A stretch of DNA of 64,000 nucleotides, from assembly GCA_039621445.1 (NCBI GenBank), contig CP154954.1:17452589-17516588 (forward strand). The letters run 5' to 3'. Position numbers and translations under genes: made by a program. Below the pieces are notes generated by a model that saw nothing but the letters and a program-made list of their open reading frames with translations, was not told where the DNA came from and made no database searches. This document shows positions 8,531 to 32,215 of the stretch, one piece after another. This DNA comes from Euglena gracilis. Taxonomy: Eukaryota. Position 1 is the stretch's first letter, and each line of letters opens with the position of its first letter.

Positions 8531-8562
<32 letters not shown>

Positions 8563-11112
8563 TGATTGGTATGGACGAGGAATTCTAGGAATGGGTGGCG
8601 GTGGGTGGGGATGGGAGGGGATGGGAGGGAGGTGGGGGGGTGCCGCAGAGGGGGGAGGCCTCGCACGGTTTTCACGCCCACCTCCAGCCGGTGCGGCCCG
8701 AACTGGAGGGCCGGAGATACCAGCTCCGGCAGGCCGGGGGTGGCACACCTGCGATGTCGCCGCCTCCGCGTCCGTGCTGGTCATGGTCTCCTTCTGCCGC
8801 CGCTGCCGCCGCCGCCCGCCGCGACGATGGCCTTGAAGGGGATCCCACGGGTTGGGATGAGAGGGGATCGGAGGGGGGCCGGCCCTTGCCTCCCTCTCTC
8901 TCTCTCTCTCCCCTCCGCGGTGGTCTCGATGTGGTTGGGGGCTCCGACTCCCCCGACAGTGGCGTTGAGCTTGACATTTTTCCTGCAGCTTCTTCAGCTC
9001 CGCGCTCAGGGCGGAGATGGTGTCCGCCATTCTCTTGATCTCCTTGTGCAGGGCAGCCCCTCGCCTGCTCTGCACCGGCGTCCATACGTCGCCTTCTTCT
9101 CTTCTGCCTCTTGCTTCATCACGGGGTTGGTTGCCCTGCGCACTCCCAGGGCGAGAGGGTCTTGTAGATCTCATGGCGCTTGAACTTTGTGATTCCCCAG
9201 GGCGGTGCCCACGGGTCGATTCCCTGTTGGGTCGCCAAGGGGCTTGGGGCCGGGGCAAATCCCGCTTCGCTTGCTCCCCTGCGGACGGGGTTGGCGGGGC
9301 ACAGGCACCACGCTGCCTGCCACCCGCCCGGACTTGGCTCGGTCTCGCTCCGGGGACGTGGCTCCCAGAGGGTTGGTGGCCCTGGGGGGGGCCGTGGGGG
9401 TGGCGCCTTGGACCGGGGTGGTCGGCCTCCCCGATCCTGGCACCTTCATGCCAGTCGTGCGTCTGGCGCTCGAGGTCCGCGGGGCGCTCGACGTTCTGGG
9501 CTGCTGCGGCTTCTTGCCATTCTTGGATGATGCTCCGCCGCTGGGGGCCGCACGAGGCCCAGACCTGGTTCTGCAGGTCCGGGTCCCATGATTCGTACAT
9601 GGCTTGTCCTCGTCCTGCTTGTCGTGGGTCCTTCAGCACCGCCTTCCACTCTTCGTACTTGGCTCGCCACTCGGCAGGCCACTCACTCAACGAAGTGAAC
9701 TTCCTCTTCTTCGTGGGGCCTTGGGAAGAGGTGTCGTCGTCGGTGGTGTCGCTGGGTGGCGGCGGGGGAGCGGTGAGGAGGAGGCGGTTGGGGGCCTCGA
9801 TGGCGGGAATGGGGAGACCTTGGAGGAGGGCCAAGGAAGACGAGGAGGAGGAGGAGGGGCCGATGGTGAGGGTGTGGAGATGCACATTCTGCACGATGGA
9901 GGGGGGTTGTGGCGGGGAGGGTGGGGGGTAGTGGGGGTTGGGTGCCCGGGCCTCCACGGGGACGGGGACGGGCATGGGGACCCGGACCTCCACGGGGACT
10001 TGCACGGGGACCGGGACGACCCGCTCGATGACCCGATCCACGAAGACAGGCTCCCGCACGGGAACGGGGACCTGCCTCTCGACGATGACGACCCGCTCCT
10101 GGAGGACCTCACGGGTGGGTGGGGGGAGGCATGGGGTTGGGGAGGCGGAGTCCGGGTTGGAGAGAGGGGGGCCTTGGGAGGCTGTGGGGGCCGTTGGGGC
10201 GCTGGGGGATTGGGAGGCGGTGCTTGGCTGCGCTGCAACCCCCTCGAGGGCGTCCGTCTCTGTCTCCATGGCCGTGGGCTGGCAACTCTCAGGCCCGCCC
10301 GGGCTCCCCGGGGGCGAGATCCTTGGCGGCGTCACCCCCGGTTCACCGCCCAGCGTAAACCCCGCTCCGGTGTGGGCCAGCCTGTCGCTTGGGGCGTCCC
10401 CCCTCGGCTCTGAGGCCGGTCCTGGCAGCACGATCACGGACCCGCCCGGGCTCCCTGGGGCTGAGATCCTTGGCGGCGTCACCCCCAGTTCACAGCCCGA
10501 CGTAAACCCCGTCACGGTGTGGGCCAGTCCGTGGCTCGGGGCGTCCCCCTCGCTGTCCTCAGGCCCGCCCGGGCTCCCCGGGGGCGAGATCCTTGGCGGC
10601 GTCACCCCCGGTTCACCGCCCAGCGTAAACCCCGCCCCGGTGTGGGCCGGCCTGGTGCTGCGGCTGTTTGGGGCGTCCCCCTCCTCTTGACTGATTGGTA
10701 GAGGCTCGCCCGGGCTCGCCGGGGGCGGGATCCTTGGCGGCATCACCCCCGGGTCCTTGCCCTTGCTGCTCACGAATTGGGCGCACCTCACCTCTGGGGC
10801 GTCCCCCTCTCTGAGCCCTGGCCAGTGGACGGATCGGGACGCTCCTCTCGGGGCCTGCTGCTTGCCGTGGCGCACGTGGGCCTCCCGGTCGATGATCATC
10901 ACATCCACGTCGGAGGCCTGGGAGGCGGAGGGGGAAGGGGGCGGCATCATCTCGGCCAGCAAGTCGTCGATGCCCCCGGGGAGGGGGGCGGGGTGGCCGA
11001 AGACGGAGAGAAAGTCGGCCTGGGAGGGGGCATGGGCCTCATCGAGGGGGAGGGCTGTGGCCCATGGGGCTGGGGGAGCGCGGTGGGGGCTGGAGTGGAG
11101 CCACTTCCACAC
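8531..11112 (-). CDS. PLE post-RT extension: Pro-rich repeats, PVPV repeat, Trp-rich helical module, 2A-like motif, coiled coil; no stop inside the element
   Basis: Part of the 912-aa open frame 8374..11112; copy B shows WKWLHSSPH is in frame with RT; blocks EWPAEWR, WDxxLQxQVWA, HDWxEGxRIGEAxxPGP and NPWxPLQ are conserved in the divergent family 2 element. Confidence 0.7.
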
Positions 11113-12943
11113 CTTGGAAAACCAGGTGCGGAGCTCACGGACGCGGATGTCGGTGGCATGCCAGCGCTGGAAGAGGAAGGAAGCGGCTCCACACCGACTG
11201 CACCAGGCGGCGAGAGTACCCCCGCCAGATGGCGTTGCGGAAGATGTTGGCCACTGACTGCTTGAAATCCCCCATGTGGCTGCAGGCCATCCGGGCGAAC
11301 TCCAGGCGGCCCATGATGACCCCGCCCAGCTGCTCGGTGGGGGCGGTGGTGGTGGCTAGGGGGTAGCGAACAATGTGGTGGGGGTACTCCTCCTCCCGGT
11401 CGTGGACGGTGGTGTGCACCACGCGGTCCCCGTTGGAATGGCATTGGATGTACACCCGGACGCCCAGGCACACCACGGACTCGCCGGAGCCGGTGGTCTT
11501 GTACTCCATGCCGTACTCGGCTGCCGAGGGGAGGGGCATGGTGGTGGGGTGGACGATGTCGTCGATGTATCGGGACACGGCGGAGGACCGGAGCTGGGGA
11601 GGGAGGGCGTACATGTGGTCGCGCTCCACGGGGTAGCAGGCCAGGTTGGCCAGCTGCGGGGCCGGGGGGAGGCCCATGGGCATGCCCCGGATCTGGCGCC
11701 GGACCCTTCCGCCATTGCAGGTGTAGTTGTTCTGCACCGCCACGGCCACCAGCTCCTTCAGGTCATCCAAGGAGTAGCCGAGGCCATCCCACGACCAGCC
11801 GCCGGTGGTGAGGGACGGTGGGGTGGCGGGGTCCACCCCAGCGGGGGTCTTGGTCTCCCGCACGAAGGCCCAGGCCTCCTTGGCCGACTCCATGGTCCGC
11901 TCGATGATGGCGTCGAAGGTGAAGGCCGTGTACATCGTCGTGAAGTCCGCCGTCTCCAAGCCCCCCGCCAGGATGTCCTTGGAGTGGGTTCGGACCATCC
12001 GGACGAAAGACTCCACGCTGTCGATTCCCCAGAACGCCTTGATGCCCTCCTGCTGTTGCCGCCGCTCGTCCTTTTCCCGGAGGGCGACCTCGATGTGCTT
12101 CAGGAGCGACACCAAAGCCTTGCTCAGGGCATAGAGGGGCTGCCGGGGGGGCTCCTTGGAGGCGGTGGGGGCGGAGGCGGGGGCGGACTCAGAGGCGGGG
12201 GCGGGGGACCCGGGGTCGGGATCGGGGTTCTTGCGGGTCCCGGCAATGAACCGGAACTTCTTCTTCGCTGGCTTCCAGATGCCGTAGTTGTAGACGACAC
12301 CGGCGCCAGTGGGGAAGTGCAACCGCTGGTTGACCTCCGACAGCCGGGCAACCACCTCCCTCCAGGTGTCGGTCACGTCCTCGAACACGGTGGAGTCCGC
12401 CAGGTAGGTGGCCATCTGCTTCTGGTACCAGCGCTTGCAAACGAACATCAGGCCGTGGGGGGCCCGGTCGTCGTGGAGGAAGACGAGGACCTGGTGGGCC
12501 TCCCGCATTTGCTGTGACAGGCCCGGGAAGCCGGTGGGGACCAGCTCTTCTCTGACGGCCGAGCACCGCCAGTTGGTGGTGCAGCGGGCCTCCACGGCGT
12601 CGGCCCACTCGCCCAGCTTCCGGAGGTAGGTGGCGTCGGTGGGGTTGCTGCGCGCTGCCCACTCGGTGTACTGGTTCAGCGCCCGGCGGAGGTCGTGGAG
12701 GACGGTGTCGGGGGGGCCCTCCAGCCGGAACTTCTTCCCCTTGGCCGCCAGGGTTTGCAGGTACGACCATCGCAGCAGCTCGGACTCGTTGCTCACCACG
12801 TGGCCCTCGTGGAAGGCTGCCGGCTCCTTCCGGCGGAGGGCTGTGTGGCACTGGCAGCCCTCGAGGTCGTCGGCCTGCGCGGCGGCCACGTCCAGCTCGC
12901 TGGAGACCTGGGCGTAGTTGCACAGCCACGCCTGCCATTGCGG
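8531..12943 (-). mobile_element. Penelope-like retroelement family 1, copy A (5'-truncated, 3' end in (GA)n)
   Basis: Near-identical reverse complement of ~24313-29235 (without the MITE found in copy B); PLE-type RT motifs; ends ...CCAATCAAGAAGAGAGA(GA)n, seen as the TC run at 8531-8558. Confidence 0.9.
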
Positions 12944-12946
12944 CAC
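11135..12946 (-). CDS. PLE reverse transcriptase domain (copy A, N-terminally truncated)
   Basis: ADFTTMY, IRGMPMGLPPAPQLANL, RYIDDI, CLGV and upstream DDRAPHG (position of the PLE DK motif); frameshift near 11180-11210 relative to copy B. Confidence 0.88.
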   Translation of the reverse strand: MPQWQAWLCNYAQVSSELDVAAAQADDLEGCQCHTALRRKEPAAFHEGHVVSNESELLRWSYLQTLAAKGKKFRLEGPPDTVLHDLRRALNQYTEWAARSNPTDATYLRKLGEWADAVEARCTTNWRCSAVREELVPTGFPGLSQQMREAHQVLVFLHDDRAPHGLMFVCKRWYQKQMATYLADSTVFEDVTDTWREVVARLSEVNQRLHFPTGAGVVYNYGIWKPAKKKFRFIAGTRKNPDPDPGSPAPASESAPASAPTASKEPPRQPLYALSKALVSLLKHIEVALREKDERRQQQEGIKAFWGIDSVESFVRMVRTHSKDILAGGLETADFTTMYTAFTFDAIIERTMESAKEAWAFVRETKTPAGVDPATPPSLTTGGWSWDGLGYSLDDLKELVAVAVQNNYTCNGGRVRRQIRGMPMGLPPAPQLANLACYPVERDHMYALPPQLRSSAVSRYIDDIVHPTTMPLPSAAEYGMEYKTTGSGESVVCLGVRVYIQCHSNGDRVVHTTVHDREEEYPHHIVRYPLATTTAPTEQLGGVIMGRLEFARMACSHMGDFKQSVANIFRNAIWRGYSRRLVQSVWSRFLPLPALACHRHPRP

Positions 12947-13249
12947 CCCCTCCCCCAGGGGTTGGTGCTACGACCCCAGGACCGGCGGCTTAATTTGGGT
13001 ACTCACGCCCCAAGCCTTCGGGTGCCGTCCGTATTTTTCGGCAATTTTTGCCTCTTTCCACACCGAAAGGGCCTTGTCTCGCCCTCCCCAAAGGGTGCTG
13101 TCCCGGAGGGTGCCCCGTAGGTAGTGGACCATTTTTCCGTCCCGCGCTGCCTTGTTTTTGGGGCCGGTTTTTTTCAGCCCCCCCCCTCCCCCACCCCCGG
13201 GAGGGTGACGCAGAGCTCGTTTGTAACGGTCTGCACCACACAGACAAGA

Positions 13250-13322
13250 GCGGTCGGGGACGAGGGTTGGCAGGGTCGTCACCCCTGACGATGCCCCACC
13301 TGCCAGCCTGGGGCGAAACCGC
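13250..13322 (+). ncRNA. Type III hammerhead ribozyme (unit 1)
   Basis: Stem III GCGGT/ACCGC, GTC cleavage triplet (cut after 13255), stem I GGGGACGA/TCGTCACCC, core CTGACGA (13285-13291) plus one extra T, stem II GCCCCA/TGGGGC, GAAA (13315-13318); loops I and II are complementary. Confidence 0.9.
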
Positions 13323-13909
13323 AACACAGACTGACAACACACGCGCCCACACCGACTGACAACACACTTCCCCCACAAGCACACACTCTCGGGTCGGCAA
13401 GGAGTTCCCCCCAAGGAGTTCCCCCAGCAACACCGATTCAGAAGAGAGATTTACGCAGTGACCCTGCGTCCCATGGAGCTTTCCATGGCATTTTTCCCAG
13501 AATTGCATGGCGCGGTTGTTTCGCACCCCCATGCCTCGCCCCCAGCGCCCCATTTTGTGGGCTAAACCCGCGGCAGTTCTACTGAGCAACCGGCGGCTCA
13601 GGCCACCCCCTCCCCCAGGGGTTGGTGCTGCGACCCCAGGACCGGCGGCTTAATTTGGGTACTCGCGCCCCAAGCCTTCGGGTGCCGTCCGTATTTTTCG
13701 GCAATTTTTGCCTCTTTCCACACCGAAAGGGCCTTGTCTCGCCCTCCCCAAAGGGTGCTGTCCCGGAGGGTGCCCCGTAGGTAGTGGACCATTTTTCCGT
13801 CCCGCGCTGCCTTGTTTTTGGGGCCGGTTTTTTTCAGCCCCCCCCCTCCCCCACCCCCGGGAGGGTGACGCAGAGCTCGTTTGTAACGGTCTGCACCACA
13901 CAGACAAGA

Positions 13910-13982
13910 GCGGTCGGGGACGAGGGTTGGCAGGGTCGTCACCCCTGACGATGCCCCACCTGCCAGCCTGGGGCGAAACCGC
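13910..13982 (+). ncRNA. Type III hammerhead ribozyme (unit 2)
   Basis: Same sequence as 13250-13322. Confidence 0.9.
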
Positions 13983-14570
13983 AACACAGACTGACAACAC
14001 ACGCGCCCACACCGACTGACAACACACTTCCCCCACAAGCACACACTCTCGGGTCGGCAAGGAGTTCCCCCCAAGGAGTTCCCCCAGCAACACCGATTCA
14101 GAAGAGAGATTTACGCAGTGACCCTGCGTCCCATGGAGCTTTCCATGGCATTTTTCCCAGAATTGCATGGCGCGGTTGTTTCGCACCCCCATGCCTCGCC
14201 CCCAGCGCCCCATTTTGTGGGCTAAACCCGCGGCAGTTCTGCTGAGCAACCGGCGGCTCAGGCCACCCCCTCCCCCAGGGGTTGGTGCTGCGACCCCAGG
14301 ACCGGCGGCTTAATTTGGGTACTCGCGCCCCAAGCCTTCGGGTGCCGTCCGTATTTTTCGGCAATTTTTGCCTCTTTCCACACCGAAAGGGCCTTGTCTC
14401 GCCCTCCCCAAAGGGTGCTGTCCCGGAGGGTGCCCCGTAGGTAGTGGACCATTTTTCCGTCCCGCGCTGCCTTGTTTTTGGGGCCGGTTTTTTTCAGCCC
14501 CCCCCCCTCCCCCACCCCCGGGAGGGTGACGCAGAGCTCGTTTGTAACGGTCTGCACCACACAGACAAGA

Positions 14571-14643
14571 GCGGTCGGGGACGAGGGTTGGCAGGGTCGT
14601 CACCCCTGACGATGCCCCACCTGCCAGCCTGGGGCGAAACCGC
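14571..14643 (+). ncRNA. Type III hammerhead ribozyme (unit 3)
   Basis: Same sequence as 13250-13322. Confidence 0.9.
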
Positions 14644-15230
14644 AACACAGACTGACAACACACGCGCCCACACCGACTGACAACACACTTCCCCCACAAG
14701 CACACACTCTCGGGTCGGCAAGGAGTTCCCCCCAAGGAGTTCCCCCAGCAACACCGATTCAGAAGAGAGATTTACGCAGTGACCCTGCGTCCCATGGAGC
14801 TTTCCATGGCATTTTTCCCAGAATTGCATGGCGCGGTTGTTTCGCACCCCCATGCCTCGCCCCCAGCGCCCCATTTTGTGGGCTAAACCCGCGGCAGTTC
14901 TGCTGAGCAACCGGCGGCTCAGGCCACCCCCTCCCCCAGGGGTTGGTGCTGCGACCCCAGGACCGGCGGCTTAATTTGGGTACTCGCGCCCCAAGCCTTC
15001 GGGTGCCGTCCGTATTTTTCGGCAATTTTTGCCTCTTTCCACACCGAAAGGGCCTTGTCTCGCCCTCCCCAAAGGGTGCTGTCCCGGAGGGTGCCCCGTA
15101 GGTAGTGGACCATTTTTCCGTCCCGCGCTGCCTTGTTTTTGGGGCCGGTTTTTTTCAGCCCCCCCCCTCCCCCACCCCCGGGAGGGTGACGCAGAGCTCG
15201 TTTGTAACGGTCTGCACCACACAGACAAGA

Positions 15231-15303
15231 GCGGTCGGGGACGAGGGTTGGCAGGGTCGTCACCCCTGACGATGCCCCACCTGCCAGCCTGGGGCGAAAC
15301 CGC
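15231..15303 (+). ncRNA. Type III hammerhead ribozyme (unit 4)
   Basis: Same sequence as 13250-13322. Confidence 0.9.
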
Positions 15304-15881
15304 AACACAGACTGACAACACACGCGCCCACACCGACTGACAACACACTTCCCCCACAAGCACACACTCTCGGGTCGGCAAGGAGTTCCCCCCAAGGAGT
15401 TCCCCCAGCAACACCGATTCAGAAGAGAGATTTACGCAGTGACCCTGCGTCCCATGCAGCATTTTTCCCAGAATTGCATGGCGCGGTTGTTTCGCACCCC
15501 CATGCCTCGCCCCCAGCGCCCCATTTTGTGGGCTAAACCCGCGGCAGTTCTACTGAGCAACCGGCGGCTCAGGCCACCCCCTCCCCCAGGGGTTGGTGCT
15601 GCGACCCCAGGACCGGCGGCTTAATTTGGGTACTCGCGCCCCAAGCCTTCGGGTGCCGTCCGTATTTTTCGGCAATTTTTGCCTCTTTCCACACCGAAAG
15701 GGCCTTGTCTCGCCCTCCCCAAAGGGTGCTGTCCCGGAGGGTGCCCCGTAGGTAGTGGACCATTTTTCCGTCCCGCGCTGCCTTGTTTTTGGGGCCGGTT
15801 TTTTTTCAGCCCCCCCCCTCCCCCACCCCCGGGAGGGTGACGCAGAGCTCGTTTGTAACGGTCTGCACCACACAGACAAGA

Positions 15882-15954
15882 GCGGTCGGGGACGAGGGTT
15901 GGCAGGGTCGTCACCCCTGACGATGCCCCACCTGCCAGCCTGGGGCGAAACCGC
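15882..15954 (+). ncRNA. Type III hammerhead ribozyme (unit 5)
   Basis: Same sequence as 13250-13322. Confidence 0.9.
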
Positions 15955-16070
15955 AACACAGACTGACAACACACGCGCCCACACCGACTGACAACACACT
16001 TCCCCACAAGCACACACTCTCGGGTCGGCAAGGAGTTCCCCCCAAGGAGTTCCCCCAGCAACACCGATTC

Positions 16071-16534
16071 AGAAGAGAGAGAGAGAGAGAGGGGGGAGGA
16101 GAGAGGAGAGAGAGGCGAGAGAGAGAGAAGATGAGAGGAGGGGGGGAGCCGGGAGAAGAAAAGAGAGATGGAGAGGGAGAGGGAGAGAGAGAGGGGAGGG
16201 AGGGGGGGAGGCGCGGTCGAGGGGGAGAGGGTGAAGAGAAGGGGGGGGGGGGGAGGGGGGGGGGGGGGGTGGGGGAAGGGGGGGGGGTGGCGACGGGGGG
16301 GGGGGGGGGGGCTGAGGGTGGGGGAAAGGGGGGGAAGAGAGGGGGGGGAACGCGGAGGGGCAGGGGCGGGGCAGAGAGGGGGGGCGGGGGGGGGAGGGGC
16401 TGTGGAGCGGGACGGGGGGGGGGTGGAGAGAGGGAGGTGGCGTGGAGGGGGTGGGGTGGAGGGAGAGAAGAGGGGAGGGGGGGTGGTGGGGAGGAAGGGA
16501 GGGGGGAGAAAGGGCGGTGGATGGAGCGGGAGAG

Positions 16535-16640: not shown

Positions 16641-16859
16641 GGGTGAAGAAGCAGAGCAGGCGACAACGCTGCGATCGCAGCAGAAGAGGGGCGAAGGCGG
16701 AGAGAGGCCGAGAAGATGGTACGGAGAGAGAGGTGTACAAGCTCCACCCAGAGCCGGAGAGGGGCAAGAGAGAGCGGAGGTGGGCAGAGCCAGCAGAGGC
16801 ACAAACCCATGCAGAGAGCCGAGAGAAGAGGGGGAGAGACTGGGGACGCAGGTGCGACC

Positions 16860-19700
16860 GAACGCCACGCTGGTGGAGGGGCACGTCCTCTCCACAGACC
16901 CCGACGAGCTGGCGTCCCCGTACCTGAGGGAGATCCTCAGCAAGGGGAAGAAGTACCGCCTGCGGCTGCCCATCTCGTCAGTGCTGGCGCGCCTCGACGA
17001 CGGCCTCCGCCAGTACGTGGAGTACAAGACCAAGGCCCACCAAGACGACGAGGGCTACCGCACGGGCCTGCTGAAGTGGGCGGAAGCGGTGCGGGCACGC
17101 GCAGAGGCCCGCATCACGCAGGCGGCGAGGGAGCACCCCCACGAGCCAGACGGGTACCCCAACCTGCAGGAGCAGCTCAGCGCAGCCAAGAGGGCGCTGG
17201 TGTTCGGGCCGGAGGACAGGGCACCGCACGCCCTGTTCTTCGCCTGCGGGCGGCTGTTCGCGGCGAAGCTGCACGAGCGGCTAGAAGCGACCGGGGCATT
17301 CGTCCCAGACGCCCGCCCGCCGGCGGACCTGCTGGAGCAGATCAAGGCCCTGAACGACGAGCTGCAGCTCCTCCACCACCCACGGCTGCCATACCTCTAT
17401 GGAGCATGGAAGGCCAAGAAGCAAGCCTTCCGCTGGATTGCCGGGACGGCCCGGAACCAGGACGAAGGCGACCATGAGGAAGAAGAAGGAAAGCCAAAGA
17501 ACGCCCTCTCCGAAGTGGGCGGCCTCATGGTCAAAGTGCTCCAAGTGGTGATGGCAACCCTGCGGCGAAAGGACCGGGAAGCAGTGGGCAAAGGCAACAA
17601 GTCCCGCTACTGGATCATCGAGGACATCGATGAGTTCGTGCAGGAGTTCCGGGTGCTGGCGCAAAGCCGAGCGCTGAGCGCCGTGCCGTGGGCAACGTAT
17701 GACTTCACCACCATGTACGAGGCGCTGGAGCACGAGCACCTGGTGCACGGGGTGATGGCAGCGGTGAAGGAGGCCTGGGAGGAGGAAACCATCGGCAAAG
17801 CACGGGACACGGGCCAACATCCACGAGACGTGGACCTACGCCTGGGGGCAGGGGGCTGGCACGAGGCGGCCAAGGTGAAGGACGCCCCCGGAATGCCGTG
17901 GTTCACGCTGCCGAGGGTGGAGGACACCCTGCGCAAGATGCTGGCCAACCTGTACGCGGTGAACGGCGGGGTGGTGCGGAAGCAGCAAAAGGGAGTACCC
18001 ATGGGGCTGGAGTGCTCCCCGCAGCTGGCCAACCTGTACGCCTACGCCGTGGAGAGCAGGTGGGTGGACCGAACGGCACCGACCAACGTCCTGATGCGGC
18101 GGTACATCGACGACATCATCGTCATGGGACCAGATGCCCTCACCCCCGGGAAAGGGCTGCCCACCGAGGAGGACTACGGGATGCAGTACAAGTCCACCGC
18201 CGAGGAGCCCCACAGCCTCATCTACCTGGGGGTGCGGCTGTTCGTGGACGACCGCGGACAAGCCCACTCGGTCCTGCACGACCGTGCAGTGGACTACCCC
18301 ATCCGGGTGGACCGATACCCCGAGGGCACAACAGTGGCCAACCCAGCCCAGCTGGCAGGCGTCATCATGGGCCGGTTGGTGGCAGCCCAACGGACATGCA
18401 GCCGCATGGATCTGTTCCAAGACGCGGTGGCCGGCATCTTCACCCACGCGCATCGCAGGGGATACCCACGGAGAATGGTGCACTCCACGTGGACCCGGTT
18501 CCTGTGGCGGTACTGGGACGCGGCATCCGTCACCACGCGGGAACTGCGGGCGTGGTTCCACGACGCGTGGCGAAAGGTGACGGAAGCGGAGGAGGGGGGA
18601 CAGCGCAAGCCGGCCCCCAAGTGGCCAACGTGGGAAGCCCGCGTACCACTGCCGCGGGACAGTGGCAGGGGAACACCACAGCACCCACCACCGCGGGACG
18701 CAGCAGGGCACCAGGCAGCATGTGAGGGGACCCCCCAGCCCCAAGCAGCACAACGGGAGCCCATCGACGACCTCATCGACCTCACCACGCCACCGGGGTC
18801 CCCGCCACACGCAAGCCCAGGCGACGGGGAGCCGCAGGGCGGCTCCTCGCAACCAGCCAGCAGCTACCGCCCGATGGCACCGCCGCTGATACCGTACCCC
18901 CTCCCACCGAGCGGCAGGGGAGGGGTGGGGCCAACCAGGACCGGACGACCAGGACAGAGGGGGGCAGGGCAGAAAGGCAACATACCGCCGAGAAGGCCGT
19001 GGTCTTCACCGGTGTACCCCACGCGGGGGGCTGCCAGCTCGTCGTCGACTTGGGCCGAAAAGGCTGTGCGATGGGGCTGTCCGCCTTCCGAGTCGCTGCC
19101 ACTGCACGCCCCTCTCGCACAGGAGCGTGCAGTGGGGGGCGCACTCTCCCCACGAGCACAGCCACCTCACGTCCCTGTCGCCGAAACACGGTGCACAGCG
19201 AGCACACAGGAGCGGGAGGTGGCCGGCGCTTCCCCCACACCCACCACACAGACATCAGCGGCGACGCCAACCAGCCAGCAGCCACCAACAACCACAGTGC
19301 AGCAGCCGCTGCAAGTGGTCCAGGTGCCCCAACCGTACCCGGTGCCGGTGCCGGTGCCCACCCCCTGTCCCGTGCCGGTGTACGTCGAGCGCGTGGTGCC
19401 GGTACAGATCCCAGTGCCATACCACGTACCCGTGCCGGTGGTCGTGGAGCGCGCAGTGCCCACACCGTACCCGGTGCCGGTGCACGTGGAGCGCCTGGTG
19501 CCAGTGGAACGCCCACTCCCGCTGCCGTGGCTGGACACCGGGGCAGTGACCGCGCTGCTCCGGGGGGCGAGCGCACAGCTGCCCATGCCAGTCCAACGCC
19601 TGATCCAAGCGGTCAGCAGCACCACCGGGCCGACGAGGGCCCGGTGGCAGCGGGAGATGGGGCGACCACAGCCTTACCCGGCGGAAGGAGCAGTGGACCC
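16860..19700 (+). CDS. PLE family 2 reverse transcriptase and PVPV repeat region
   Basis: Inside ORF 16168..20736: EGHV..KGKKYRL, EDRAPHA, WKAKKQAFRWIAGT, DFTTMY, YIDD, QLAGVIMGRL, RRGYPRRMV all align with family 1. The coding frame appears to switch near 19630-19790. Confidence 0.8.
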
Positions 19701-19779
19701 CCAACGGGCACTGCTCGTCGAAATGGTGCGATGGATCTGGCAGCAGCAACAGCAGCAGCAAGAGAGCCGCCCCTCACCC

Positions 19780-22029
19780 ATCGCGCCACGCTGGCGATCG
19801 AAGACGCACCCACCGCAGCCACACCCACATCGCCCGCGGCAGGCACCACCCCGGCAGGAGCAGCACCACCACCAAGCAACAACCCACCACCACCCGCAAC
19901 GGAAGGGGCCAGCACCACCGCCACGCCAGCAGCACCAGGCAGCACCAGCCCCGCGCCCGCAGCAGCAGCAGCAAGCAGCACGCCGGCCCCACCAACACCA
20001 ACCACAAGCGCCACACCGCCACCGAGCGCCACCCCCACGCAGGAAGCACAAAGCACCACAGCCACCGAGGAGGCACCGGCAAGAAGCGACCCCATGGCCA
20101 CAGACCGACTCCTGGGCAACAAGCGCCCAGTGTCGGTGGTGGTGGAGGAGGCGGCCACACCACAGCCCACCGAAGGGGACGATGCCTCGCAGGCAACCCA
20201 ACCAAGCCAACGCAAGAAGAGGCTGTACACACGCTTGGCCGAGTGGCCGGCAGAGTGGCGGGAGCAGTACGAGCGGTTCAAGGCCACGCCCAAAGCAAGC
20301 GACCGCCACGAGATGTGGCAGGGGTGGGACCAAAGCCTCCAAGACCAAGTGTGGGCAGCCGTCGCCGACAAGCGGAGGGACGAGATCCGCCGATGGAAGG
20401 CGAGGGAGAACGAAGGCCCACCAACCCAAGCAGAAGGCCAAGCCAGAAGCACGCGAGAAGAGAGGCGGAGGTCCCACACCGGAGCGGCAGACGAAGGTGG
20501 AGAACCCACCAGCCACGACTGGCAAGAAGGCCAGCGCATCGGGGAGGCGAAGCAGCCAGGCCCAGAAGAGGAAGGGTCGGCAGCGGACCCCCCCGAGGGG
20601 CAAGCGGGGAGCCCAAAGAATCACCCGCGACCGGCCTGGGGCGGCTCTCCAGGGGTACCTGCCGATCACCGGCAGGGCGTGTCCCGGCACGCCGTCAATC
20701 GGGACCCCAACAAAACAGAACCCACCAGCACCATGAACACAAAAATCACAGGCATGCCAGGCAATGACGGCCTGCCCGGCGCAGAGGACCTCTGCCCCGG
20801 GTGGCAGGCGGGGCGCCAGCCTAAGAACCCGCAACCGATCTGGGGCGGATCTCCAGGGGTACCTGCCAATCACTGGCAGGGCGTGGCCCGACACGCCGTC
20901 AAGTGGGACGAAGGAGCAGAAGAACCGTGCCCCAGAAGCAGAAGCCAAGACCAGCACGACTGGAAGAAAGGGGCACGGATCGGGGAAGCAAAGAACCCCG
21001 GACCACCCCAAAGAGGGTACCAACAGCCCAACCCAAAAGGGGGGGCCCAGCGAGGAGGACAACAAACAGGAAAAGGACAGACACAGCCCAGGAAAGGAGG
21101 CAAGGGTGGCAAAGGAAACGTCACCCCACAAGGAAGCCGGCAGGGCCAACCCCAAGGAGAGGGCTGGCAAACAGCACAAAGCACCGGCCGAAAACGCCTC
21201 CAAAAGCGCCTCCAAGGGCTCCAACGGGCGCTGCAAGAAATGCAGCAAGAGCTCGACCAATGGCGGCAGAATCCGCCCCCGCAGCAGCAGCAGCAACGAC
21301 CGGACCTAAGGGACGACAACCCCTGGGCCCCCCTGCAGCCACAGCAACAACGCCGGGAGCGGAAGAGATCCATTGGGTTTGAACCCCCAAGCCGCCAAGC
21401 GAGCAGGCAGCCGCCAGAGCAACGAGGAGGACGCGGAGGACGGGGAGGACGAGGTCGTGGACGAGGCGACGGAGCCCAAGATCGACACGGCCATGGAGAT
21501 CCCCGAAACCCGCGTGCCGGGCACGGAACTTGCCAGCCGTGCCCGTCATGCGGGTACCAGAACGAGGTGTACCACGCCGACGGGGCCCTGGGGGGTGGGG
21601 GGCTCGCCGGCGGTGGCATCCCCGGGCCCCCGGGCCCTGGCGCGGGGTCCGGGGGTGGCGTGAAAGGCGTGCGGAGCCCATGGGGGGAGCGCCGCCCCCC
21701 CAGCACGCACGCACGCACGGGGACCGCCACACACCCACCAGCAGGCAAGGGAGGGGGAGGGGGAAGGGGCAGCCCAGCGCGCCAGACAGACGGGCATCCG
21801 GAGGACCGGCGGCCAAGGGAGGGGGGAGGGGGAAAGGGATGGGCAGCCCAGAGCGCCAGACAGACGGGCAGCCACCGGGGGACAGGAGGCCAAGGGAGGG
21901 GGGAGGGGGAAAGGGAAAGGCAGCCCACGTGGAGAGAGAGAGGGGGAGGGGAGAGAGGAGGACAGACAGAGGGGAGAGGGGGGAGAGGGAGGAGAGAGGG
22001 AGAGAGGGAGGAGAGAGGAGAGGAGAGGT

Positions 22030-22030
<1 letters not shown>
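19780..22030 (+). CDS. PLE family 2 post-RT extension with two 2A-like motifs and a coiled coil
   Basis: Frame of ORF 18999..22190: LAIEDAP, KKRLYTRLAEWPAEWREQYE, HDWQEGQRIGEAKQPGP, HDWKKGARIGEAKNPGP, LQKRLQGLQRALQEMQQEL, NPWAPLQ, GIPGPP; open into the (GA)n run. Confidence 0.7.
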
Positions 22031-22184
<154 letters not shown>

Positions 22185-22764: not shown

Positions 22765-22829
<65 letters not shown>

Positions 22830-22841
<12 letters not shown>

Positions 22842-25800
22842 CAAGGGCCGGCCCCCCTCCGATCCCCTCTCATCCCAACCCATGGGATCCCCTTCAAGGC
22901 CATCGTCGCGGCGGACGGCGTCGGCAACGGCGGCAGAAGGAGACCATGACCAGCACGGACGCCGAGGCGGCGACATCGCAGGTGTGCCACCCCCGGCCTG
23001 CCGGAGCTGGTATCTCCGGCCCTCCAGTTCGGGCCGCACCGGCTGGAGGTGGGCGTGCAACCCGTGCGAGGCCTCCCCCCTCTGCGGCACCCCCCCACCT
23101 CCCTCCCCATCCCCTCCCATCCCCACCCCCACCCACACCCAGAATCCCCCGTCCATACCAATCAAGAAGAGAGATTTCCGCAGTCCCTGCGGCTCGGGGA
23201 GCTTTCCCCGGGGTCCACCGTGAATTGCCTGGCGAGGTTTCTCGCACCCCCAGGCCTCCCCCCGAGCGCCCTCCCGGGCAACCCTCTTCCCGAAGGCCCC
23301 CCAGGCCGTCCCACTCCCGTGATGACCGTGCCCTCCCCATCGCCGAGCCCTACGACAAGCACGACCCCCAGCCGTCCCGCCACCGCCGCAACGAGGGGCA
23401 GTGGAGCTGGCAGGACCACCTGCAGTGGATGCAACGCAGCTGGGGGCGGCGATCTTGGCGCAACAAGACCATGCGCAGGGTCCTGCAGCTCCGCTCCAGC
23501 GACTCAGCCAACGCCGCCGTGGACTGGGGCGACGTGGCCGCCCTGTGGGATGCCCCCGGCTGGATTTACGCCCTCTTCCACTTCCCCACGGGGCGACTGT
23601 ACGTCGGGCAGACCACCCGGAAGGTTTACAAGCGGGCCAAGGAGCACTGGTGGAGCCGGGGGCGCTGCGCCGACGCCCTGCACGACGCCCTGGCCAACGA
23701 CCCCACCCCCTTCTCCTTCCTCATGATCCCCATCGAGAGGCTCCCCTCACCCGACAGCTTCCCCCGGGCTGACCGCCGCGCCCTCGCCCGCCGGGATGCC
23801 CTCGCCCGCGAGCGCAAGTGGGTGGGCCTCCTCAACTCCATGTGGCCCCATGGCTTCAACGCCGCCTACCCCGGCTTCCCCGTCAGCCGGAAGGTGCTCC
23901 GCCGCCAGCACACCCTCCCCAGCCCCGATCCCGCCCCCACATCCCAAGGCGACCCCCCGCCCAGCCCCGACCTAACCAAGTGGCTCCGTCGCTGCCACCA
24001 AGGGGACTCCAGCGCCCTGGCGGAGGCACGCTCCTGGGGCAAGGCGCGGCTGTGTTCCACCCTGGACTGGCTGCAGCAGCACGTCCCGGACGACGAGCGG
24101 CGCTCCGGCCACCTCTCGCTGGAGTGCAAGCTGGTGGAGCTGATCAAGGCGAAGAGGAAGGAGGCCCCCGAGCGGCAGTTCCTGAAGTTCTCCTACTCCA
24201 ACAACGGCGCCCGCCACCTGGAGCTGCGCAAGGTGTTGCGGGAAGAGGCCGTCTACAAGCTCCACCCCAACCCGGACGTCGCCGCAGCCATCATGGTCTG
24301 CGACAAGTTCGCCCCGCAATGGCAGGCGTGGCTCTGCAATTACGCCCAGGTCTCCAGCGAGCTGGACGTGGCCGCCGCACAGACCGACGACCTCGAGGGC
24401 TGCCAGTGCCACACAGCCCTCCGCCGGAAGGAGCCGGCAGCCTTCCACGAGGGCCACGTGGTGAGCAACGAGTCAGAGCTGCTGCGGTGGACGTACTTGC
24501 AGACCCTCGCGGCCAAGGGGAAGAAGTTCCGGCTGGAGGGCCCCCCTGACACCGTTCTCCATGACCTCCGCCGGGCGCTGAACCAGTACACCGAGTGGGC
24601 AGCGCGCAGCAACCCCACCGACGCCACCTACCTCCGGAAGCTGGGCGAGTGGGCCGATGCCGTGGAGGCCCGCTGCACCACCAACTGGCGGTGCTCGGCC
24701 ATCAGAGAAGAGCTGGTCCCCACCGGCTTCCCGGGCCTGTCACAGCAAATGCGGGAGGCTCACCAGGTCCTCGTCTTCCTCCACGACGACCGGGCCCCCC
24801 ACGGCTTGATGTTCGTTTGCAAGCGCTGGTACCAGAAGCAGATGGCCACCTACCTGGCGGACTCCACCGTGTTCGAGGACGTGACCGACACCTGGAGGGA
24901 GGTGGTTGCCCGGCTGTCGGAGGTCAACCAGCGGTTGCACTTCCCCACTGGCGCCGGTGTCGTCTACAACTACGGCATCTGGAAGCCAGCGAAGAAGAAG
25001 TTCCGGTTCATTGCCGGGACCCGCAAGAACCCCGACCCCGACCCCGGATCCCCCGCCCCCGCCTCGGAGTCCGCCCCCGCCTCCGCCCCCACCGCCTCCA
25101 AGGAGCCACCCCGGCAGCCCCTCTATGCCCTGAGCAAGGCTTTGGTGTCGCTCCTGAAGCACATCGAGGTCGCCCTCCGGGAAAAGGACGAGCGGCGGCA
25201 ACAGCAGGAGGGCATCAAGGCGTTCTGGGGAATCGACAGTGTGGAGTCTTTCGTCCGGATGGTCCGAACCCACTCCAAGGACATCCTGGCGGGGGGCTTG
25301 GAGACGGCGGACTTCACGACGATGTACACGGCCTTCACCTTCGACGCCATCATCGAGCGGACCATGGAGTCGGCCAAGGAGGCCTGGGCCTTCGTGCGGG
25401 AGACCAAGACCCCCGCTGGGGTGGACCCTGCCACCCCACCGTCCCTCACCACCGGCGGCTGGTCGTGGGATGGCCTCGGCTACTCCTTGGATGACCTGAA
25501 GGAGCTGGTGGGCGGTGCAGAACAACTACAGCTGCAATGGCGGAAGGGTCCGGCGCTAGATCCGGGGCATGCCCATGGGCCTCCCCCGGCCCCGCAGCTG
25601 GCCAATCTGGCCTGCTACCCCGTGGAGCGCGACCACATGTACGCCCTCCCTCCCCAGCTCCGGTCCTCCGCCGTGTCCCGATACATCGACGACATCGTCC
25701 ACCCCACCACCATGCCCCTCCCCTCGGCAGCCGAGTACGGCATGGAGTACAAGACCACCGGCTCCGGCGAGTCCGTGGTGTGCCTGGGCGTCCGGGTGTA

Positions 25801-26265
25801 CATCCAATGCCATTCCAACGGGGACCGCGTGGTGCACACCACCGTCCACGACCGGGAGGAGGAGTACCCCCACCACATTGTCCGCTACCCCCTAGCCACC
25901 ACCACCGCCCCCACCGAGCAGCTGGGCGGGGTCATCATGGGCCGCCTGGAGTTCGCCCGGATGGCCTGCAGCCACATGGGGGATTTCAAGCAGTCAGTGG
26001 CCAACATCTTCCGCAACGCCATCTGGCGGGGGTACTCCCGTCGGCTGGTGCAGTCGGTGTGGAGCCGCTTCCTCTTCCAGCGCTGGCATGCCACCGACAT
26101 CCGCGTCCGTGAGCTCCGCACCTGGTTTTCCAAGGTGTGGAAGTGGCTCCACTCCAGCCCCCACCGCGCTCCCCCAGCCCCATGGGCCACAGCCCTCCCC
26201 CTCGATGAGGCCCATGCCCCCTCCCAGGCCGACTTTCTCTCCGTCTTCGGCCACCCCGCACCCCC
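22830..26265 (+). CDS. PLE polyprotein: N-terminal GIY-YIG endonuclease, Cys/His linker, RT (locally frameshifted)
   Basis: GWIYALFHFPTGRLYVGQT...RAKEH...ERKWVGLLNSMWPHGFN (23558-23860) matches the GIY-YIG pattern including R, H, E, N residues; CQCH...HEGH linker; DFTTMY; YIDD. The GMPMG motif is out of frame through compensating indels. EN-before-RT order is that of Naiad/Chlamys-type PLEs. Confidence 0.85.
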
Positions 26266-27787
26266 CCCTCCCCGGGGGCATCGACGACTTGCTGGCCGAG
26301 ATGACGCCGCCCCCTTCCCCCTCCGCCTCCCAGCCCTCCGACGTGGATGTGATGATCATCGACCGGGAGGCCCACGTGCGCCACGGCAAGCAGCAGGCCC
26401 CGAGAGGAGCGTCCCGATCCGTCCACTGGCCAGGGCTCAGAGAGGGGGACGCCCCAGAGGTGAGGTGCGCCCAATTCGTGAGCAGCAAGGGCAAGGACCC
26501 GGGGGTGATGCCGCCAAGGATCCCGCCCCCGGCGAGCCCGGGCGAGCCTCTACCGATCAGTCAAGAGGAGGGGGACGCCCCAAACAGCCGCAGCACCAGG
26601 CCGGCCCACACCGGGGCGGGGTTTACGCCGGGCAGTGAACCGGGGGTGACGCCGCCAAGGATCCCGCCCCCGGGGAGCCCGGGCGGGCCTGAGGACAGCG
26701 AGGGGGACGCCCCGAGCCACGGACTGGCCCACACCGTGACGGGGTTTACGTCGGGCTGTGAACTGGGGGTGACGCCGCCAAGGATCTCAGCCCCAGGGAG
26801 CCCGGGCGGGTCCGTGATCGTGCTGCCAGGGCCGGCCTCAGAGCCGAGGGGGGACGCCCCAAGCGACAGGCTGGCCCACACCGGAGCGGGGTTTACGCTG
26901 GGCGGTGAACCGGGGGTGACGCCGCCAAGGATCTCGCCCCCGGGGAGCCCGGGCGGGCCTGAGAGTTGCCAGCCCACGGCCATGGAGACAGAGACGGACG
27001 CCCTCGAGGGGGTTGCAGCGCAGCCAAGCACCGCCTCCCAATCCCCCAGCGCCCCAACGGCCCCCACAGCCTCCCAAGGCCCCCCTCTCTCCAACCCGGA
27101 CTCCGCCTCCCCAACCCCATGCCTCCCCCCACCCACCCGTGAGGTCCTCCAGGAGCGGGTTGTCATCATCGAGAGGCAGGTCCCCGTTCCCGTGCGGGAG
27201 CCTGTCTTCGTGGATCGGGTCATCGAGCGGGTCGTCCCGGTCCCGGTGCAAGTCCCCGTGGAGGTCCGGGTCCCCATGCCCGTCCCCGTCCCCGTGGAGG
27301 TCCGGGTACCCATCCCCATCTACCTCCCTCCCTCCGCACCACAAGCCCCCTCCATCGTGCAGAATGTGCATCTCAACGCACTCACCATCGGCCCCTCCTC
27401 CTCCTCGTCTTCCTTGGCCCTCCTCCAAGGTCTCCCCATTCCCGCCATCGAGGCCCCCAACCGCCTCCTCCTCACCGCTCCCCCGCCACCACCCAGCGAC
27501 ACCACCGACGACGACACCTCTTCCCAAGGCCCCACGAAGAAGAGGAAGTTCACTTCGTTGAGTGAGTGGCCTGCCGAGTGGCGAGCCAAGTACGAAGAGT
27601 GGAAGGCGGTGCTGAAGGACCCACGAGAAGTAGGACGAGGACAAGCCATGTACGAATCATGGGACCCGGACCTGCAGAACCAGGTCTGGGCCTCGTGCGG
27701 CCCCCAGCGGCGGAGCATCATCCAAGAATGGCAAGAAGCCGCAGCAGCCCAGAACGTCGAGCGCCCCGCGGACCTCGAGCGCCAGAC

Positions 27788-28307
27788 CAGGGAATTTCTT
27801 AAGGACCCCCCGGGGGGGGGGGGGGGTCCAGCCTCCGGCTGGCAAAAAGGCTGCTGGCTGGATTTGAGCTGCTGGCTGGACCCCCCCCCCCGGGGGGGTG
27901 GGGGGGGGGGGGGGGGGGGGGGGGTCCGGGGCTGGAGCGGGCTGGGCTGGGCTGGGTCGAGGAAAAACAAAATTTTCTAACACATTTTGGCCATTTTCGA
28001 CATTTTGATGGGTGGAGCTAGATCAAGGCTGGGGGGCTGTGATGGAGGGGCTGTGATGAGGGGGAAAAATGCAGGGATAAGTGAGCTGGACAGCCCGGTT
28101 GGCTGGCCGGCCTGCGGCCGGCTGGGCCGGCCTTCGGCCGGCTGGCCCGGCCTCCGGCCGGGCTGGACCCGACTTTATTTCACTCGACCCCCCGGGGGGG
28201 GGGGGCTCCCAGCCCAAATTTGGGCTGCTGGCTGGATTTGAGCTGCTGGCTGGCTGGACCCCCCCCCCCCGGGGGGTAGGGTACCCTCCGGCTTAAGAAA
28301 TTCCCTG
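27788..28307. mobile_element. hAT-like MITE inserted in PLE copy B
   Basis: Perfect 16-bp TIR CAGGGAATTTCTTAAG; 8-bp TSD CGCCAGAC (27780-27787, 28308-28315); copy A has the empty site. Confidence 0.93.
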
Positions 28308-31300: not shown

Positions 31301-32176
31301 GGCTGCAAGGAGTTCCTTCCCATGCTCATCCCGGGTTCACCAGGCCATGCCTCCAGGAGCCATCAGCAGCGCTGGAATTACACCACAGATACTCACTCAC
31401 CCGGCCAGGGGGGGCTACAAAGTACTGGTGTAAGGGGTCCCTGGCCACTCACCACACAGCAAACTGGGCCAGAAGCGAAGTAGCAACGGCCATAAACAGG
31501 CAAGAAGCCTTAGTGCAACTAAGGGGGTCCGAGGGCGGCTGCGCGGGCAGCACGCGTCCTAAAATTTGTAATTTTTGTCCAAAAAAATGGTCATTTTTGG
31601 CCATTTTTGGGCTATTTTTGATTAAAAAAAAACAGCTTTTTGGGCCGCGCGCAGAGTGCGCAGCCCCTAAATTTGCCTCAAAAAAGTCACAATTTTCTGC
31701 AAATTTTTTTTCTTGGGCAAACTAGGCACAGTGGGGGGGTCGTGGGGGGACGAGCGGAGGGGCTGCGCGGGGGGGGGAGGGGGGCTGGGCCCCCCCCCCC
31801 CCCAAGCGGCGCCTAGCCCCCCCATGCATTTCATGATGTGTTTGCGTTCTGTTCCTCGCCAACAGGCCACAAGGTGCTTGCATACCCTCCCTCGCCAAAT
31901 GCCAACTTCCCGCCGTTGCGTTGCTTCTCGCTTTTTTATCGATGCATTCTAGTAATGTTTCATCCAATACAGTATTTTTAATTTGAAACCATGTATTGGG
32001 GCTCTGGTGTGGAGACATACACTCACCTTTCCCGTGGGTGGGTCTACACCCTTACGCCCCAGTGCTGCTCTTGTCTCCTGCCCTCTTCCCACTTTTTTGT
32101 GTGGGGGATGCATGGTGCGGACCCCGCCCTCAGACCCCCCCCCGCGGCCGCTCAGCCCCCCGCCAAAGCCGGGGAG

Positions 32177-32215
32177 GGGTCCTGGGTTTGATTCCACATC
32201 TCCGCAAGCAAGGAG
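32177..32215 (-). other. Canonical 2A (StopGo) motif LLACGDVESNPGP, probable retroelement remnant
   Basis: Exact DVExNPGP consensus with LL..G lead-in in short ORF 31949..32275; no RT visible downstream. Confidence 0.65.

Follow-up and report, generated by a model that had tools for sequence, protein, structure and literature searches.

A 17-residue peptide motif ending in PGP, HDWxxGxRIGEAxxPGP, is encoded four times by retroelements of two families in a 64,000-nucleotide stretch of the Euglena gracilis genome (assembly GCA_039621445.1, contig CP154954.1, positions 17,452,589 to 17,516,588 of the forward strand; this whole stretch is called the window below). Sequence comparison with relatives of these retroelements, which we place among the Penelope-like elements (PLEs), and with other retroelements and RNA viruses indicates that the motif is probably a StopGo-type signal of a distinct sequence class, with the core R-[I/V]-G-E-A-x-[N/H]-P-G-P, the break being expected between the last Gly and Pro, and the extension H-[D/N]-W-x-E-G. 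By comparative criteria the motif is 2A-like, although by sequence its core departs from the one that defines the 2A classes A, B and X.

Translation returned the four peptides where a preliminary description of the window had placed them (Table 1); the one in the minus-strand copy of family A is read on that strand only, the plus strand having another reading at the same nucleotides. The motif peptide is identical in both copies of family A, and family B holds two versions 147 residues apart, flanking a conserved 'PGNDG' module. All four copies end in PGP, which is preceded by N in one, by H in two and by Q in one. A six-frame scan of the whole window revealed no further copies, and a back-translated RIGEAxxPGP pattern matched at exactly the four known places. 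In 100 dinucleotide-preserving shuffles, the same pattern gave a mean of 0.00 matches, with no shuffle reaching four.

A two-sequence profile, comprising the motif and a Trp-rich domain (SEWPAEWR...) that lies upstream of it, was searched against 1.84 billion representative proteins and returned 47 proteins at E<=1e-3. The motif is intact in 33 of these and decayed in five (NPAH, NPRP, NPGA, NPEP and EPRP), while the remaining nine end before the motif site, are frameshifted or, in the case of P0055, are unrelated. In an alignment of 14 sequences, 10 of the 11 invariant columns belong to the motif (H, W, G, R, I, G, E, P, G and P), the other being an upstream Arg, which bears out the earlier remark that the motif is the best conserved short block of the protein. 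The accompanying remark that the protein is otherwise unalignable and of low complexity was overstated, as the Trp-rich domain of about 60 residues aligns between the families and is predicted to fold; over a 104-residue stretch around it, families A and B are 51% identical. In PLEs the motif always stands behind this domain, at the end of a linker of about 10 to 60 residues. AlphaFold2, run on the alignment, predicted the Trp-rich domain as a four-helix bundle (residues 11-70, block means of the predicted local distance difference test (pLDDT) 89-94), and the linker and motif without secondary structure (block-mean pLDDT 52-71). According to this model, the motif is an unstructured linker segment outside any fold. 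The domain itself matches no Pfam family, and a Foldseek comparison of its model with the PDB gave nothing at E<=0.001 (best E=1.9).

Pooling the protein searches yielded 86 motif instances, corresponding to 67 unique 17-mers. Their consensus reads H-[D/N]-W-x-E-G-x-R-[I/V/M]-G-E-A-x-[N/H]-P-G-P, and relatives extend it by a leading Ser (S-H-[DN]-W). The spacing between GEA and PGP is exactly two residues in 86 of 86 instances, with no indel. Trp is present in 52 of the 67 unique 17-mers, and PGP is preceded by N in 48, by H in 12, by Q in three, by D in two and by K and T in one each; the NPGP ending of the second family B motif is thus the commonest form and the Gln of the first a rare one. 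Complementarily, codon usage was compared among eight distinct DNA copies. Each invariant residue is encoded by two to four synonymous codons (four for R, three to four for both invariant Gly, four for A and three to four for P). Since synonymous codons vary freely at the invariant residues, constraint acts on the peptide.

Unrelated carriers, namely long interspersed nuclear elements (LINEs), OTU-domain proteins and RNA-virus contigs, contain the core R-[IV]-G-E-A-x-[N/H]-PGP as well, and when metagenome contigs were scanned for RIGEAx[NHQ]PGP, at least 600 stretches matched. One metagenome locus (L006) and a protein cluster with 85 member sequences (P0065) represent a LINE that carries the core in its N-terminal leader, followed by a GDFN endonuclease motif, RVT_1 and a TDGS RNase H-like motif, that is, the order apurinic/apyrimidinic endonuclease (APE), reverse transcriptase (RT), RNase H. 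Relatives of this LINE were collected with residues 85-700 as query, covering the endonuclease and the following region and excluding the motif. This search returned 16 proteins of 32-54% identity, three of them with EukProt gene labels, including one label beginning 'Skav', which we take to denote a Symbiodiniaceae gene set. The query and 14 of the 16 relatives hold the core, in the 14 as R-[IVWF]-G-E-A-x-[N/H/L/R]-PGP; the two core-less relatives begin inside the endonuclease. The leaders are 35-856 residues long and mutually dissimilar, and in all 13 proteins in which GDFN was found, PGP lies 163-169 residues ahead of it. Among OTU-domain proteins, P0094 carries the core at residues 5-21 and 47-63, and P0056 between the OTU domain and a CCCH finger; a further protein, P0068, has three core copies in tandem.

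The core was also found in 25 distinct IMG/VR contigs of 1.2-10.4 kb. Of the 21 compared with Pfam, 12 yielded matches to RdRP_1, to coat domains (Viral_coat or Peptidase_A6) or to a nodavirus methyltransferase, and nine yielded none in the open reading frames (ORFs) examined. Six contigs carry two to five core sites within one ORF. The richest example, ORF 2-4141 of contig L009, begins with an RNA-dependent RNA polymerase, followed by five sites at residues 357, 478, 604, 734 and 1224. Its first three inter-site segments measure about 120-130 residues, and a zinc ribbon lies directly behind the first site. Across the viral ORFs, 37 of 37 [N/H]PGP sites are preceded by G-[E/D]-A-x, 12 of them at sites where the search patterns did not demand it, and several sites show the extended form of the window motif (for example, EHDWKRGVRIGEASNPGP and SHDWKDDERIGEASNPGP). 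As a control, the same DNA pattern was run against 596 billion prokaryotic bases, giving 12 single matches, mostly in short ORFs of GC-rich genomes and never more than one per ORF. The core is portable in the way expected of a 2A peptide, standing at one to five sites per viral ORF and at a constant place before the endonuclease of LINEs.

To place the motif among known 2A peptides, we compared it with the classes described in recent surveys, as far as the portions of these papers available to us go. Skipping occurs between G and P of x-N-P-G-P, and the canonical core is (D/G/C/N)(V/I)ExNPGP (Rao et al. 2025, PMC12338488; Li et al. 2026, PMC12846837). Class B follows W-x3-(L/V)-x2-E-G-(I/V)-E-x-(N/H)-PGP (PMC12338488), equal to motifs 1/4 of PMC12846837, and class X has a single substitution in (G/H)D(I/V)ExNPGP (Baral et al. 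2026, 10.64898/2026.09.24.754024). With canonical class A peptides the motif shares a C-terminal N-P-G-P, or its H alternative, in most copies, together with a conserved upstream block of 17-18 residues in a fixed register and a constraint that acts at the level of the peptide and not of the codon. It also shares their placement between modules of RNA-virus polyproteins, just before a non-LTR endonuclease (LTR, long terminal repeat) and in several copies per ORF; standing before a coiled coil is a further placement known for 2A. It differs from class A in that R-[IV]-G-E-A-x replaces (G)D(V/I)E-x, which adds one residue when the two are aligned on Glu, and in having H-[DN]-W-x-E-G upstream instead of a Leu-rich stretch. 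Like class B, it occurs in viruses and protists, dinoflagellates being mentioned by Rao et al. (PMC12338488); it also has a Trp upstream and N or H ahead of PGP, and places a Gly eight residues before the final Pro. In contrast to class B, the centre reads R-I-G-E-A instead of E-G-(I/V)-E and there is no Pro at position 5. Membership of class B was rejected on register and centre, its pattern fitting none of the four window copies. Judged by sequence, the motif thus fits no class A, B or X pattern in the published accounts as available to us.

APE-type non-LTR retrotransposons can carry 2A-like sequences N-terminally (Odon et al. 2013, as described in the citing preprints available in part), and the placement in the LINE family parallels these: the new core sits at the same place, in the same order of variable leader, motif and endonuclease. 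It differs from them in its core, and the window carriers differ in being PLEs with the motif past the RT and not before an enzyme. The motif is unmentioned in the main texts found by literature search (RIGEA together with NPGP, or the octamers GEAxNPGP and GEAxHPGP), while supplementary tables of 2A surveys may hold such peptides; a 2026 preprint on eukaryotic 2A-like peptides, of which we saw a part, assayed many NPGP-ending 20-mers (10.64898/2026.06.17.732966). One relative of the window elements, P0097, carries in the same post-RT region both RIGEATNPGP (1277-1293) and DGDIHPNPGP (1445-1460), a canonical-type 2A variant with His at the Glu position. The window itself also holds a canonical 2A peptide (SGDVEANPGP) at 52968-52994 on the minus strand, about 125 residues from the start of a 1224-residue open frame (49695-53369, minus strand) with RVT_1 at residues 596-728 and a Cys/His-rich C-terminal part; retroelements of this genome thus carry canonical 2A too. 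A second canonical 2A-like peptide, LFLLACGDVESNPGP, lies at 32177-32200 (minus strand) in a 108-residue frame (31949-32275) with no recognisable domain nearby and may be a remnant of a retroelement 5' end.

The centre of the motif bears on the proposal of the preliminary description that this is a variant StopGo signal. Aligned without gaps to the canonical octamer, the window motif and all homologues have G-E-A at p12-p14 in place of (D/G/C/N)(V/I)E: G at p12 is allowed by the published core, whereas E at p13 and A at p14 lie outside it, as far as the accounts available to us describe it. Single deviations are active in natural contexts, namely a Gly replacing the Asp, an Ala replacing the Glu, the latter in a few class X peptides, and H before PGP, a documented active variant (PMC12338488; PMC12846837; 10.64898/2026.09.24.754024, each as available in part). 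Several points nevertheless weigh against a skipping function. In the accessible parts of the surveys, p14 is almost exclusively E and p13 is V or I, with G rare (PMC12846837), every clustered class X motif retained V/I at p13 (10.64898/2026.09.24.754024), and neither the present combination nor E at the V/I position is reported as active in the 2A surveys compared. The Trp of the motif is at position 15, one residue nearer PGP than in class B, where it is at position 16, and a one-residue Trp shift in the class B peptide B1 abolished activity (PMC12338488, as available in part). The first family B motif has Gln before PGP, which is not among the documented active variants. The invariance described above was partly built in by the retrieval and filtering of sequences, although the retrieval criteria do not account for the N/H preference, the Arg or the hydrophobic residue. 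Conservation at domain borders would fit a host protease site or a binding partner as well. Finally, all three window elements are damaged by truncations, frameshifts or an insertion and are uninformative on present activity. What speaks for a variant StopGo signal are the NPGP/HPGP tails of the homologues, the fixed register, selection on the peptide and occurrence at 2A-type sites.

The carriers fill a GC-rich block at about 8.4-29.3 kb of the window (GC 0.60-0.70, with flanks at about 0.37-0.53), which is made up of three retroelement copies from two related families, two copies being of family A and one of family B. From motif order and the published description of the clade, they are PLEs of the Chlamys/Naiad type of organisation, with an N-terminal GIY-YIG, CxC and RT. 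Read by eye from the translations, an element begins with (GA)n, a pseudo-long terminal repeat (pseudo-LTR), GIY-YIG (WIYALF...YVGQT), CxC and RT (YIDD), and continues with a Pro/Val-rich low-complexity region, a basic KKRK patch, the Trp-rich domain, the motif and a basic low-complexity stretch. Its 3' end comprises a heptad-like stretch resembling a coiled coil, R/G-rich sequence and again (GA)n. Pfam matches to RVT_1 were weak (P0002, 21.3 bits; P0003, 32.3 bits; cut-off 29.6), no GIY-YIG match was obtained in the elements, where this motif was read by eye, and nothing matched in their C-terminal parts. Likewise, the ESM Atlas gave no usable match for the C-terminal region, and Rfam at gathering score found neither a hammerhead nor any other RNA family in the whole window. 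The two family A copies are 96.6% identical. The family B copy is 99% identical over 976 residues of the RT part and 96% over 695 residues of the C-terminal part to P0061 (EukProt protein EG_transcript_109, 1954 aa, from a transcript labelled Euglena gracilis), from which it differs by one frameshift; P0061 carries GIY-YIG, CPCR and YIDD at residues 2, 281 and 704, respectively. Because the protein from this transcript is nearly identical, family B is very probably transcribed as one frame.

Chlamys and Naiad elements, in the part of the published account available to us (Craig et al. 2021, PMC8557442), share with the window elements an N-terminal GIY-YIG, CxC, RT, pseudo-LTRs, 5' truncation (two of the three window copies), insertion at microsatellites and the lack of a canonical hammerhead ribozyme. 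The published targets are (CA)n or (C)n, in contrast to (GA)n here, and that account, as far as available, names no euglenid, whereas the present carrier is one. Moreover, the window elements add a post-RT extension of about 900-1,200 residues with the Trp-rich domain, the 2A-like motif in one or two copies and the coiled-coil-looking segment, and their frame stays open across the unit junction. A literature search joining Euglena with Penelope-like elements found nothing relevant. All three copies end in or beside (GA)n (8531-8558, 22056-22177 and 22770-22835), which suggests a (GA)n target preference.

Table 1. Features of the Penelope-like elements in the window.
Feature	Position	Strand	Remarks
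Family A, full-length copy	22836-29182	+	Flanked by (GA)n; small indels relative to the other copy; 528-bp insertion
Family A, pseudo-LTR	22818-23133, repeated 28867-29182	+	Direct repeat
Family A (+), GIY-YIG	23561-23614	+	Read by eye
Family A (+), CxC (CQCH)	24401-24412	+	Read by eye
Family A (+), YIDD	25682-25693	+	Read by eye
Family A (+), Trp-rich domain	27561-27740	+	
Family A (+), motif	28317-28367	+	HDWHEGARIGEADHPGP; starts 10 nt past the 528-bp insertion
Family A (+), coiled-coil-looking stretch	28722-28805	+	
Family A, minus-strand copy	8597-12943	-	5'-truncated after GIY-YIG
Family A (-), CxC	12845-12856	-	
Family A (-), YIDD	11558-11569	-	
Family A (-), Trp-rich domain	9508-9687	-	Upstream of the motif
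Family A (-), motif	9409-9459	-	HDWHEGARIGEADHPGP; HPGP type; from translation
Family A (-), coiled-coil-looking stretch	8971-9054	-	ALHKEIKRMADTISALSAELKKLQEKCQ; heptad-like; about 120 residues past the motif; read by eye
Family B copy	16846-22177	+	5'-truncated just past CxC; ends in (GA)n at 22056-22177
Family B, YIDD	18103-18114	+	
Family B, Trp-rich domain	20238-20417	+	
Family B, motif copy 1	20514-20564	+	HDWQEGQRIGEAKQPGP; Gln before PGP
Family B, conserved module 'PGNDG...AEDL.PGW.AGSQP'	20745-20822	+	Between the two motifs; adjoins motifs in relatives also
Family B, motif copy 2	20955-21005	+	HDWKKGARIGEAKNPGP; NPGP type
Family B, coiled-coil-looking stretch	21189-21269	+	Past motif copy 2
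Family B, CxxCxxC knuckle-like motif	21531-21554	+	Follows the coiled-coil-looking stretch

The plus-strand copy of family A carries a 300-nt direct repeat, at 22818-23117 and 28867-29166, with 100% identity between its two copies, and the repeat is read as the same amino acids (...ARAGPPPIPSHPNPWDPLQ...PYQSRRE) at both ends, its 5' copy leading into the GIY-YIG part and its 3' copy trailing the coiled-coil-looking part. There is no stop in that frame within the element, and (GA)n is stop-free in all frames of that strand. The two copies of family A do not share the frameshifts that interrupt it, which marks these as mutations. Two relatives read through the unit junction: P0098 (1808 aa) contains the Trp-rich domain (351), the motif (456), a coiled-coil-looking stretch, GIY-YIG, CxC (1177) and RT, and P0095 (2168 aa) the module, the motif (100), a coiled-coil-looking stretch, GIY-YIG (608), CxC (887) and RT (1314). 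In P0061, P0096, P0097, P0099 and P0100, the motif lies past the RT. Family A and P0095 have in common a conserved stretch just ahead of GIY-YIG (RDDRxLP...W.W...RRxWR...LxLR), and this conservation marks it as coding. GC-rich, repeat-rich DNA of this kind is open in all six frames, so that openness is a weak argument and conserved protein sequence the stronger one. Given the repeat in the same frame at both ends and the ORFs of relatives that cross the junction, the 'endless ORF' of the preliminary description is supported. Its wording that the motif replaces a stop codon was imprecise, since StopGo allows translation to continue. A third proposal, that the mature protein would begin with the coiled-coil segment followed by GIY-YIG and RT, holds in part: P0095 and P0098 read the motif and then that order in one frame, while P0061 reads GIY-YIG, RT, motifs and coiled coil. 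This order requires a motif-bearing upstream partial copy, and the sole full-length copy of the window, with only a repeat of about 316 bp and no motif upstream, therefore cannot yield it.

Under the StopGo reading, the last ~17 residues would sit in the ribosomal exit tunnel and leave the Gly-Pro bond unmade, releasing an upstream chain that ends in ...NPG or ...HPG, with translation resuming from Pro. The released product would be the endonuclease-RT protein including the Trp-rich helical domain, and the downstream product, starting from Pro, a basic protein with the coiled-coil-looking part and a Cys knuckle, resembling an ORF1-like partner. A single stop-free frame could in this way supply the enzyme and a separate ORF1-like protein. 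In family B, two motifs would additionally free the intervening module of about 147 residues, and tandem units or long upstream partial units would give unit-length proteins that start with the coiled-coil part.

Other explanations have to be weighed against this. It is unlikely, in our judgement, that the peptide is instead a short linear motif acting after translation, one that viruses and retroelements would reuse as the cleavage site of a conserved host protease or for docking a host factor. Its location in a predicted unstructured linker at domain borders, its conservation as a peptide and a core unlike any reported as active in the 2A surveys compared, as far as available, would all be expected of such a motif. 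However, the invariant [N/H]-P-G-P end in a fixed register of about 17 residues is the 2A signature, and noda-like, tombus-like-coat and picorna-like viruses would need one host protease or partner in common with LINEs and PLEs whose apparent sources are a euglenid and Symbiodiniaceae-like gene sets. A site at protein residues 5-21 would also be an odd place for docking or cleavage.

Quite improbable, to our mind, is a stalling or termination signal without efficient restart ('falloff' or lowered abundance), which would end the endonuclease-RT protein in a stop-less frame and keep the downstream part low instead of yielding both proteins in equal quantity. All the comparative evidence that points to a ribosome-directed peptide applies to it too, the frame without internal stop does run into the (GA)n flank, and most retrotransposon 2A-like peptides lowered protein abundance without clean skipping in human cells (preprint 10.64898/2026.06.17.732966, as available in part). 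Yet translation must pass the motif where up to five sites follow one another in a viral ORF or where LINE enzymes lie downstream, and the sequence past the motif is conserved at the protein level in relatives. That the motif is merely an ordinary structural segment of the C-terminal domain, or reflects conserved nucleic acid (RNA structure or a protein-binding DNA site), is highly improbable. It does always trail the Trp-rich domain in PLEs, but LINEs, OTU proteins and viruses have the motif without this domain, the structure prediction leaves it unfolded, its synonymous sites vary freely and no Rfam family matches in the window at gathering score. This explanation is already largely refuted: a segment of the Trp-rich fold is ruled out by occurrences lacking that domain, and a nucleic-acid signal by the codon variation.

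Two further features adjoin or interrupt the elements. The minus-strand copy of family A borders at its truncated 5' end directly on a tandem array (12944-16086) of about 4.75 units of 660 bp, which are 98-100% identical. A section of this unit matches 23145-23271, a little way inside the plus-strand copy, at 76% identity, and the array may be a non-autonomous head-to-tail derivative of the element. The 528-bp insertion in the plus-strand copy (27779-28306) has terminal inverted repeats (AGGGAATTTCTTAAG and CTTAAGAAATTCCCT) and a duplicated GCGCCAGAC at its flanks, and by these features looks like a small DNA transposon similar to a miniature inverted-repeat transposable element.

Taken together, the distribution of the core allows a broader reading, which we put forward tentatively and hold to be possible without being the likelier outcome: R-[I/V]-G-E-A-x-[N/H]-P-G-P may be a third independent StopGo solution across protist RNA viruses, Symbiodiniaceae-type LINEs and euglenid PLEs, serving in PLEs as the sole delimiter of protein ends in a circularly open, stop-less frame. 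If so, tandem, or possibly circular or rolling-circle, templates would be translated into unit-length PLE proteins. Three large surveys from 2025-2026, in the parts available to us, took a (V/I)-E core as the basis for defining classes A, B and X of 2A peptides (PMC12338488; PMC12846837; 10.64898/2026.09.24.754024). An active G-E-A class would mean that the exit tunnel tolerates a quite different solution, would widen viral and retroelement annotation and would provide a new sequence for co-expression tools. The motif offers a practical marker of junctions in RNA-virus polyproteins, and it marks the true start of LINE enzymes in protist genomes, where gene callers fuse unrelated leaders to them. 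As far as the literature searched goes, it would be the first 2A-like signal in a Penelope-like element, and it would give a testable answer to how a frame that never closes defines its proteins.

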